Positions 52,975-53,090 of a DNA stretch of 64,000 nucleotides are shown here, piece after piece. The notes under the pieces are model-generated. The model was not told the origin of the DNA. It saw nothing but the letters and a program-made list of their open reading frames with translations, and did not search any database. The stretch is taken from the IMG/VR virus record IMGVR_UViG_3300027851_000017, positions 9,303-73,302 of that record, one strand, 5' to 3'. This DNA comes from a virus. The position numbers were made by a program, and so were the translations under genes. The first letter of the stretch is position 1. Each line of letters begins with the position of its first letter.

Positions 52975-53090
52975 TACTATCAACAAGGCTTAGAGAGACA
53001 TAGTAACAGTTAATACAGTGAGTTTTCAGTCCAATTAGAAGTAACTGTATTATTCAACATATGTCTTTCTAAGCCTTGCGGCCTAGAGTA
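52975..53090 (-). ncRNA. long nested stem-loop RNA immediately 3' of the Ro60-like gene (Y-RNA-like candidate)
   Basis: 18-bp stem caaggcttagaaagacat/atgtctctctaagccttg with one A.C mismatch encloses an 8-bp stem aatacagt/actgtatt. Contains the agttacttc motif. Confidence 0.3.

Follow-up and report, generated by a model that had tools for sequence, protein, structure and literature searches.

Is the long nested stem-loop that lies directly 3′ of a Ro60-like gene in a viral genome a Y RNA, a processing site or a terminator? The question is raised by 64,000 nucleotides (nt) of IMG/VR virus record IMGVR_UViG_3300027851_000017 (positions 9,303 to 73,302 of that record; hereafter the window, numbered from its first letter). 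A first-pass annotation of this DNA, made from the letters alone, had noticed the element at 52975-53090 and had left these three possibilities side by side. Here we call the element SL1 and the Ro60-like gene rsr. SL1 is a real, conserved and covarying RNA structure on the rsr strand. It is probably the gene of a hairpin-type Y RNA, that is, one of the YrlB/Yrn2 kind without a tRNA-like part, which would be excised from a transcript that also carries rsr, a second module (SL2) and tRNA-Trp.

The gene beside SL1 is a true Ro60/Rsr, as had been surmised. Its product matched the Pfam TROVE domain (E = 6.4e-10), its translation contains the DTSGS metal-ion-dependent adhesion site motif in the vWA domain, and its best sequence match in PDB was the Ro60 protein of Thermus phage phiLo (E = 1.4e-15). 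An AlphaFold2 model with a predicted local distance difference test score of 83 gave full-length fold matches to each of the solved Ro60 structures, among them 9KOP, 1YVP and 2NVO (TM scores of 0.62-0.68) and 9NEN. The phage is a distant T5-like virus, whose DNA polymerase shares approximately 50% identity with its counterparts in Vibrio phage pVp-1 and Enterobacter phage KKP_3711. All genes of this region, including 26 tRNA genes at 49.3-61.8 kb, are on the minus strand. From rsr to tRNA-Trp, the sole promoter-like site is located upstream of rsr (54602-54574).

SL1 consists of two nested helices and an apical loop (Table 1). The outer helix pairs 53078-53060 with 53002-52984; the stem and its single A.C mismatch were correctly recognized in the first-pass annotation, but its length is 19 positions rather than 18. 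The 8-bp inner stem (aatacagt/actgtatt, quoted as the minus strand) was found as described, and the loop, put at about 25 nt, has 24. Two features had been absent from that description. A bulged U at 53059 is followed by two pairs, GU:AC (GU = 53058-53057), and an asymmetric internal loop, UGAAU/AACUGUU, separates the outer and inner stems. The heptamer UUACUUC (53044-53038), which includes a YUAY motif, begins on the last base of the 5′ strand of the second helix; when this base is counted, the loop starts with UUACUUCU, a pyrimidine-rich second module. The apical loop stands at the place where YrlA, the Y RNA with a tRNA-like part, has its tRNA-like domain.

The folding energy of the 95-nt SL1 was -33.1 kcal/mol, compared with -13.2 ± 2.5 kcal/mol for shuffled sequences (z = -8.1; equalled by 0 of 200 shuffles), and its minimum free energy (MFE) fold is the consensus structure of the family described below. 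The 116-nt span originally marked gave z = -5.3. The arm sequence was found in the window at only these two places, with 0.04 matches expected by chance. SL1 measures 95 nt including the full closing helix (core, 71 nt), inside the 80-130 nt range of Y RNAs, and begins 58 nt past the rsr stop codon on the same strand, within the about 2-4 kb that separates Y RNAs from their Ro60 gene.

A blastn search of the region against 50,697 phage records found no relative, and Rsr-based scans of IMG/VR and INPHARED returned only relatives at 48% identity or less. A protein-cluster search yielded two groups of Rsr proteins, one 86-98% identical and the other close to 60%, and it was through this search alone that contigs of close relatives were obtained. 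A DNA-pattern scan of viral contigs (CAGTTACTTCN{10,30}CTGTAT) was discarded, as all of its 120 loci were chance matches in coding DNA. SL1 follows rsr in all fetched relatives. In six of the seven close relatives it is 95-100% identical, in genomes where the third codon positions of rsr are 72-94% identical. The seventh carries compensatory differences, for example UUACGG/CCGUAA for AUACAG/CUGUAU, and the A.C mismatch is replaced by an A-U pair.

Covariation was evaluated on alignment A2, a plain, unfitted MAFFT alignment of 16 SL1 orthologues. In this alignment 93.5% of cells were paired (75.8% in shuffles), and changes on both sides were seen at 21 of 29 pairs (12.3 in shuffles). The covariation score was 0.52 compared with 0.20, a value reached by 0 of 500 shuffles, and slid controls did not exceed 0.115. 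RNAalifold, run independently, produced an identical structure with compensatory changes at 20 of its 26 pairs. The pairing first seen in a single genome is thus kept in related phages through compensatory changes.

A recurrent motif connects SL1 with other RNAs. The minus strand has five copies of UUACUUC between 51.7 and 54.9 kb, all preceded by AG; two of these are in weak Rfam YrlA matches upstream of rsr and one is in SL2. In 80 metagenomic rsr loci, the apical-loop hexamer occurred 258 times on the rsr strand versus 80 times on the other, with approximately 69 expected per strand. A position table of 277 distinct instances gave the fixed-spacing consensus U-G-G-Y-G-W-A-G-R-N-N-A-C-R-G-U-UACUUC. 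The family core is arranged as a basal helix, a bulged U, GG:CC, an internal loop (UGGYGWAG/YUUGUUCC), a second helix of 6-8 bp and UUACUUC, and on its 3′ side YUUGUU-CC leads into a sequence complementary to the basal 5′ strand. Position -16 holds the bulged U, and the two nucleotides that come after UGUU are the pairing partners of -15 and -14. SL1 reads UGUUGAAUAAUACAGU-UACUUC ... CUGUU-AC, in which the G-to-U change at -14 is compensated by C-to-A on the opposite strand; this pair is GC in 139 sequences of the family and UA in 5. The SL1 copy of the 5′ motif, UGUUGAAU, thus has U for G at -14, and it has UGAA where the Ro motif has CGAA; the stem itself is present and covarying. An alignment of the SL1 5′ motif to the UAGYG of relatives with one deleted G was rejected, as the weight table shows no indel, just substitutions and the compensating change. 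Judged by its sequence, GGYGWAG is the GNCGAAN0-1G motif that has been proposed as the Rsr recognition site, and UUAC is the YUAY of YrlA (cf. PMC4201824). The family core would accordingly correspond in sequence to the Ro60-binding helix of known Y RNAs.

We built a covariance model, R1, from 18 short hairpin modules of distant rsr loci (set A3), none of which is from this clade or located directly after rsr. On both strands of the window R1 gave four matches, all on the minus strand. The top match was full-length and covered the SL1 core (52996-53066, 44.3 bits, E = 3.6e-9). It was followed by a YrlA-like RNA upstream of rsr (54617-54748, 39.8 bits, E = 5e-8), the 72-nt tRNA-like part of which was accommodated as an insertion in the apical loop, and by SL2 (52904-52992, 28 bits, E = 6e-5). 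The fourth, at 51744-51807, was partial and non-significant (E = 1.5), and grew to a full module when the filters were omitted (51694-51811, 36.7 bits, E = 7e-8). In 94 other rsr loci R1 found 198 matches (E ≤0.01), every one of them on the rsr strand, and the same was true of all 65 matches in 30 loci from bacterial genomes (Acidobacteriota and others). Among 144 distinct R1 matches there were 845 double-change cells compared with 284, a level reached by 0 of 500 shuffles. Because R1, built without this clade, matches both SL1 and tRNA-like Y RNAs, SL1 is assigned by model match to an rsr-linked stem-core family that also includes the latter.

The bacterial loci (L223-L252; mainly Acidobacteriota, also Alphaproteobacteria and Patescibacteria) carry one to five R1 modules upstream of rsr and on its strand. 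Rfam YrlA at its gathering score detected none in 20 of these bacterial loci, and this bacterial clade appears to be outside current Rfam coverage.

The covariation, the family membership and the bias to the rsr strand lead us to regard SL1 as a likely hairpin-type Y RNA and not as a terminator. The initial suggestion of a second Y-like RNA beside the Ro60-like gene thus gains support from the match to a distantly trained model, the compensatory changes in 16 orthologues and the layout of the core. The transcript containing rsr, SL1, SL2 and tRNA-Trp would presumably start at the promoter-like site at 54574-54602. The Rsr ring would bind the bulged helix and internal loop of SL1, as Ro60 does with GGUCCGA/CUUGAC in animals and GNCGAA in bacteria. 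The apical loop may recruit or occlude a partner, by which the RNA would gate or tether Rsr in infection. SL1 would be freed by cutting within its 19-bp closing helix, with RNase III as the likely enzyme. The freed strands may then refold into a hairpin at the 3′ end of the rsr mRNA (hairpin C) and into the basal helix of SL2, and RNase P acting at the 5′ end of tRNA-Trp would generate the 3′ end of SL2.

Several observations count against the assignment of SL1 to the Y RNAs or against parts of this scheme. Rsr binding to SL1 is inferred from genomic association and motif correspondence. The SL1 clade deviates from the consensus at two conserved G positions (-14, which is compensated, and -9) and has UGAA, not CGAA. 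With lax filters and E values of up to 10 allowed, Rfam YrlA still gave no match in 52900-53140, and the neighbouring tRNA-like RNAs scored only 28-30 bits against its gathering score of 69. With the element alone, Rfam returned only sub-threshold chance matches to microRNAs, small nucleolar RNAs and long non-coding RNAs. SL1 fits YrlB and Yrn2 by their description rather than by sequence comparison. The A3 modules were pre-selected for pairing, which renders their figure of 93% paired partly circular; the covariation and the independent matches are not affected. Finally, the unprocessed precursor favours the long-helix state by about 7 kcal/mol over the refolded state, and refolding would need cleavage because the long-helix state is the more stable one in the precursor.

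The long closing helix is a peculiarity of the first module after rsr. There the basal helix has a median of 19 bp (n = 21) and measures 18-23 bp in 15 of the 21, compared with medians of 7 bp in upstream modules of the family (n = 179) and 6.5 bp in those further downstream (n = 20). Its sequence differs between loci with full compensation. In SL1 the closing duplex of 19 bp plus 2 bp stands at a unit boundary and spans the about two helical turns of an RNase III site. Both strands have alternative partners. The basal 7-10 nt of the 5′ strand are complementary to the segment just upstream, with which they form hairpin C; this hairpin was predicted in 19 of 21 orthologues despite their differing sequences, and its helices average 7.4 bp as compared with 4.7 bp for shuffled flanks. 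The final 8-11 nt of the 3′ strand also serve SL2 as its basal 5′ strand (AGCCU inside UAAGCCUUG), pairing with AGGCU just before the tRNA, and the basal pair of SL2 changes from G-C to C-G in one relative. The strands shared with hairpin C and SL2 therefore give the layout a - a′b[Y1]b′a[Y2]a′. When the 233-nt RNA is folded whole, the MFE structure has the long helix (-67.2 kcal/mol); in the refolded state, in which hairpin C and the SL2 basal helix form and the SL1 stem is short, the energy is -60.4 kcal/mol.

A role in processing is suggested by the restriction of the long helix to the first module, together with the strands that it shares with hairpin C and SL2, and the long helix probably serves to excise SL1 from the Ro60-tRNA transcript. 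This position-specific duplex with its conserved alternative partners suggests a processing site, most simply one for RNase III. A processing site, the second of the three original possibilities, is compatible with a Y RNA and probably applies to the long outer helix too. More tentatively, the helix might be the hub of a programmed strand-exchange device. In such a device the primary transcript would form one 19-bp duplex (a′b:b′a), and cleavage or Rsr binding would free a′ to pair with the upstream a, giving a hairpin C that caps the rsr mRNA; the downstream a would then pair with the distal a′, giving the SL2 basal helix just before tRNA-Trp. If this were true, a single event, possibly under Rsr feedback, would couple stabilization of the rsr mRNA 3′ end, release of two Y RNAs and tRNA maturation.

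The position of SL1 can also be explained in other ways. It might be a cis-acting element in the 3′ untranslated region (UTR) of the rsr mRNA, serving as an Rsr autoregulatory site, as a 3′ stabilizer or exonuclease barrier, or as both, and not as a free RNA. No promoter-like site occurs in the 58 nt that separate the stop codon from SL1, the long closing helix is confined to the first module after rsr, and a conserved competitor hairpin and other conserved 3′-UTR hairpins lie alongside, all of which would suit such an element. However, the same core is also found upstream of rsr, in arrays and abutting tRNAs, which is typical of small RNAs from polycistronic precursors, and a pure stabilizer would need neither the conserved internal loop nor UUACUUC. 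We consider a cis-acting element unlikely; it overlaps with the Y RNA reading, as Rsr binding is common to both. Another explanation starts from the tRNA region at 51.8-60.1 kb, which is rich in near-perfect hairpins of 16-23 bp, several of them starting from a tRNA CCA. SL1 could be one more punctuation hairpin of this kind, an RNase III site or exonuclease barrier unrelated to Rsr. This is improbable, since the other long hairpins lack the core motifs and an R1 match, whereas the conserved interior of SL1 has matches among the rsr-linked modules of unrelated loci, some of them on bacterial chromosomes. Moreover, crAss001 keeps the core with a basal helix of just 7 bp, the opposite of motif loss with the helix retained.

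That SL1 is the intrinsic terminator of rsr, the third possibility raised at the outset, is very hard to sustain. A stable hairpin directly 3′ of the gene would fit, and a run of U follows a downstream module in one distant relative (L018). In the window, however, no U-tract follows SL1 (UUGAUAG downstream of its stem) or the GC hairpin of SL2 (UUACUAAUG), and the minus strand from 53136 to 52904 has no terminator-like site. The AU-rich stem encloses 57 nt, SL2 and tRNA-Trp follow without a recognizable promoter, and the tRNA is only 80 nt downstream. Least credible of all is an antisense RNA transcribed from the plus strand. Folding gives the plus strand a small advantage in stability (z = -7.25), because the A.C mismatch becomes G.U. 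Against this, all 263 family matches in 124 other loci are on the rsr strand and the motifs are not symmetric; relatives restore the mismatch to A-U, the minus strand shows several independent G.U pairs, and it also carries every gene of the region. A hairpin-type Y RNA remains the reading that we favour.

Table 1. Features in and around the rsr locus of the window
Feature	Position	Strand	Remark
Fifth Y-like module, with T-arm-containing insert	51694-51811	minus	after tRNA-Lys(CTT)
tRNA-Trp(CCA)	52828-52903	minus	
SL2, second hairpin-type Y-like module	52904-52992	minus	ends 1 nt before tRNA-Trp
GC hairpin GCCGCAAGGCGG	52930-52941	minus	part of SL2
SL1, hairpin-type Y-like module, 95 nt with long closing helix	52984-53078	minus	
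End of SL1 3′ strand, UAAGCCUUG	52992-52984	minus	overlaps model match of SL2
SL1 outer-helix 3′ strand UAUGUCUCUCUAAGCCUUG	52984-53002	minus	
SL1 3′ motif AACUGUU-AC	53003-53011	minus	family consensus YUUGUU-CC
SL1 inner (second) helix, 8 bp	AAUACAGU 53051-53044 with ACUGUAUU 53019-53012	minus	
SL1 apical loop, 24 nt	53020-53043	minus	begins UACUUCU, goes on with UUGG...GAAAAC
SL1 proposed Rsr-binding 5′ motif UGUUGAAU (bulged U, GU pairs, UGAAU)	53052-53059	minus	family UGGYGWAG
SL1 outer-helix 5′ strand CAAGGCUUAGAAAGACAUA	53060-53078	minus	basal 8 nt GGCUUAGA alternatively pair with upstream arm of hairpin C
Hairpin C, UCUAGGCC-GCAA-GGCUUAGA, 8 bp	53068-53087	minus	mutually exclusive with base of SL1 outer helix
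Hairpin A, AUGCUG-UAGUCAGU-CAGCAU, rsr 3′ UTR	53104-53123	minus	
rsr, Ro60 orthologue, TROVE ring and vWA domain, 467 amino acids	53137-54540	minus	
Sigma-70-like promoter TTGAAT-17-TATAAT (with TG)	54574-54602	minus	consensus match only; just upstream of rsr
YrlA-like Y RNA 1, same stem core with 72-nt tRNA-like insert (T arm, D arm)	54617-54748	minus	
YrlA-like Y RNA 2	54752-54893	minus	Rfam YrlA 28.5 bits

Five Y-like modules surround this one rsr gene; besides SL1 and SL2 there are three that have T-arm or tRNA-like inserts on the stem core of SL1. SL2 on its own folds into the family structure, and its elements follow in the order 5′ motif UGUUGAUAG, UUACUUC, mini-helix UAGU...ACUA, ACCA, GC hairpin and CUAAUG...UGUUAC-AGGCU. 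The GC hairpin, which had been noted correctly, is not a separate terminator-like feature but a variable insert in the apical part of SL2; relatives have four other sequences in its place, all perfectly paired. A reading of the region as small open reading frames (ORFs) was dropped: the overlapping ORFs are spurious, and relatives carry indels of 10-17 nt in the GC hairpin. A kissing interaction between the loops of SL1 (UUUGGUU) and SL2 (AACCAAA) holds in L140, L141 and L143 and was rejected, as it fails in this window. The apical domain of SL2 (52943-52963, minus strand) has a covarying 4-bp mini-helix, UAGN...NCUA, followed by ACCAWWU; it is also present at L140:3053, L143:2989, L141:131 and L199:1320, and resembles an acceptor-stem mimic with an NCCA-like tail. 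Upstream of rsr, YrlA-like RNA 1 scored 29.6 bits with Rfam YrlA, under the gathering score of 69. YrlA-like RNA 2 has the 5′ motif GUGGUGUAGAUUACAGAUACUUC and the 3′ sequence CCUGUUCC-CGCUAAUA, and R1 recognizes its 5′ half alone. A counterpart of hairpin C, the competitor located upstream of SL1, is a 20-bp AU-rich hairpin (54882-54926, minus strand) that overlaps both the 3′ ACCA of tRNA-Met and, in YrlA-like RNA 2, the basal 5′ strand.

Other conserved or structured sequences were observed nearby. The 8-nt loop of hairpin A, UAGYCAGY, is conserved on covarying stems in one to four copies per locus, with further examples at L140:2904, L141:1603, L143:2840, L145:1939, L159:2924, L016:4481/4526/4584 and others. 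Counting stems closed by 3 bp or more, there were 21 instances; of those whose position was checked, most fall after the rsr stop codon and before the first Y module. A protein may bind to this hairpin. Three AT-rich promoter-like sequences of the minus strand end in TATAATAAT(T): one before rsr (54574-54602), one before a 75-amino-acid ORF at 52530-52757 (52782-52809) and one before the structured RNAs at 55.8-56.1 kb (about 56090-56110).

In the tRNA region, near-perfect hairpins of 18-20 bp at 56418-56487, 51996-52079 and 58075-58160 (minus strand) start at the encoded CCA of the preceding tRNA (UACCAUAU... / ...AUAUGGUA), so that its 3′ end is sequestered. The interior of the first of these (UUAGCG ... 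UAUGUUUU) resembles a minimal Rsr-site motif without the second helix. At 51893-51986 (minus strand) a tRNA-Asn(GTT) is within a 17-bp extended acceptor stem and has no discriminator-CCA context, and at 59841-59951 (minus strand) a second T-arm-containing tRNA-like element is within a 20-bp stem; both may be tRNA-like non-coding RNAs rather than ordinary tRNAs. Five structured intergenic RNAs of 120-190 nt with closing helices of 16-23 bp (55816-55953, 55951-56070, 57944-58075, 59940-60097 and 52160-52350, minus strand) had no Rfam match, and two of them share the motif GGGUGACCCUA.

How does SL1 compare with known systems? Metazoan Y RNAs (hY1, Y3, Y4 and Y5; Xenopus Y3) have a bulged helix in their terminal stem, in which Ro60 reads mainly the 5′ strand, GGUCCGA, which faces CUUGAC; the two strands of the family consensus, UGGCGAAGG / CUUGUUCC, are similar. 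SL1 would form part of a polycistronic phage transcript of mRNA and tRNA, whereas each metazoan Y RNA has its own RNA polymerase III gene and a La-bound 3′ U tail. The closing helix can be compared with RNase III stems, such as the 16S and 23S rRNA flanks and the T7 early-mRNA sites, in which a duplex of approximately 20 bp is present at the boundary of a polycistronic unit and cleavage can leave a stabilizing 3′ hairpin upstream. In contrast to these stems, the SL1 duplex encloses a Y RNA core and each of its strands is complementary to a second partner.

Hairpin-type Y RNAs are YrlB of Salmonella Typhimurium and Mycobacterium smegmatis and Yrn2 of Deinococcus radiodurans (Chen et al. 2014, PMC4201824). 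Homologues of YrlB were found within Salmonella only, and Yrn2 is co-transcribed with a tRNA (PMC4201824). SL1 is similar to them in its location next to rsr on the same strand with a tRNA-like Y RNA in the locus, in its presumed polycistronic precursor, and in a 5′-strand motif that may be of their GNCGAA type. As far as their descriptions go, SL1 alone has a closing helix of 18-23 bp, a UUACUUC loop start and strands shared with its neighbours.

With YrlA (RF02553), SL1 shares a basal helix with the putative Ro motif, an asymmetric internal loop with CUUGU on the 3′ side, a second helix of 6-7 bp and YUAY, and its layout parallels the Rfam YrlA consensus cggCgaAUGCu...aAaAcUuGucGccg. It is not a member of the Rfam YrlA family, because it has no YrlA score and lacks the tRNA-like domain, both the T arm (GUUCGAAUC) and the D arm, whereas YrlA-like RNAs 1 and 2 (54617-54748, 54752-54893) have both arms. 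In this clade the tRNA-like members themselves reach only 27-42 bits, compared with the gathering score of 69, and the strand opposite GGYG is UUCC, not CGCC.

The nearest solved structure to this Rsr is phiRo60 of Thermus phage phiLo, with a protein identity of just approximately 20%. Two phage Y-like hairpins, Yrl1 and Yrl2, were shown to bind to phiRo60 and to the host PNPase (PMC12135203; PDB 9KOP, 9L5Y). Both phages combine a Ro60 gene with two adjacent Y-like hairpins, for which a CGAA-type motif in a bulge is a putative common feature (SL1 has UGAA); in phiLo, however, the hairpins are upstream of the gene. In Caulobacter phage CcrColossus (L220, NC_019406), approximately eight Y-like modules, detected as five R1 and three sub-threshold Rfam YrlA matches, precede rsr at 1761-2953; one region of this array is annotated as tRNA-Gln and others as terminators. 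In Bacteroides phage crAss001 (L221, NC_049977), hairpin modules at 4411-4494 and 4505-4582 directly follow the TROVE gene gp96. They are followed at 4588-4731 by a tRNA-shaped RNA with an acceptor stem, a D arm and a T arm, in which the anticodon arm is replaced by the Y stem core, and which is the un-permuted counterpart of YrlA. None of these three RNAs is annotated in the record. CcrColossus and crAss001 thus offer concrete Rsr-binding candidates in cultivable systems.

Y RNAs beside bacterial and phage Ro60 genes were already known, phage examples included. So far, a homology model has existed for the tRNA-like branch (YrlA) only, and the hairpin branch (YrlB, Yrn2) has been untraceable beyond single genera. 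Searching with the core motif brings out two to eight Y-like RNAs for each rsr locus, in phages (T5-like, crAss-like and Caulobacter) as well as in Acidobacteriota and other bacteria, in loci where Rfam YrlA at threshold finds nothing, and these modules make the function of phage Ro60 more directly testable. The long helix with its alternative pairings could account for the excision of Y RNAs from mRNA-tRNA transcripts. New in comparison with the known systems are the core motif that joins hairpin-type and tRNA-like members across phages and bacteria beyond the reach of Rfam, and the arrangement of five modules around one rsr gene, with a long closing helix and conserved strand sharing that are special to the first module.

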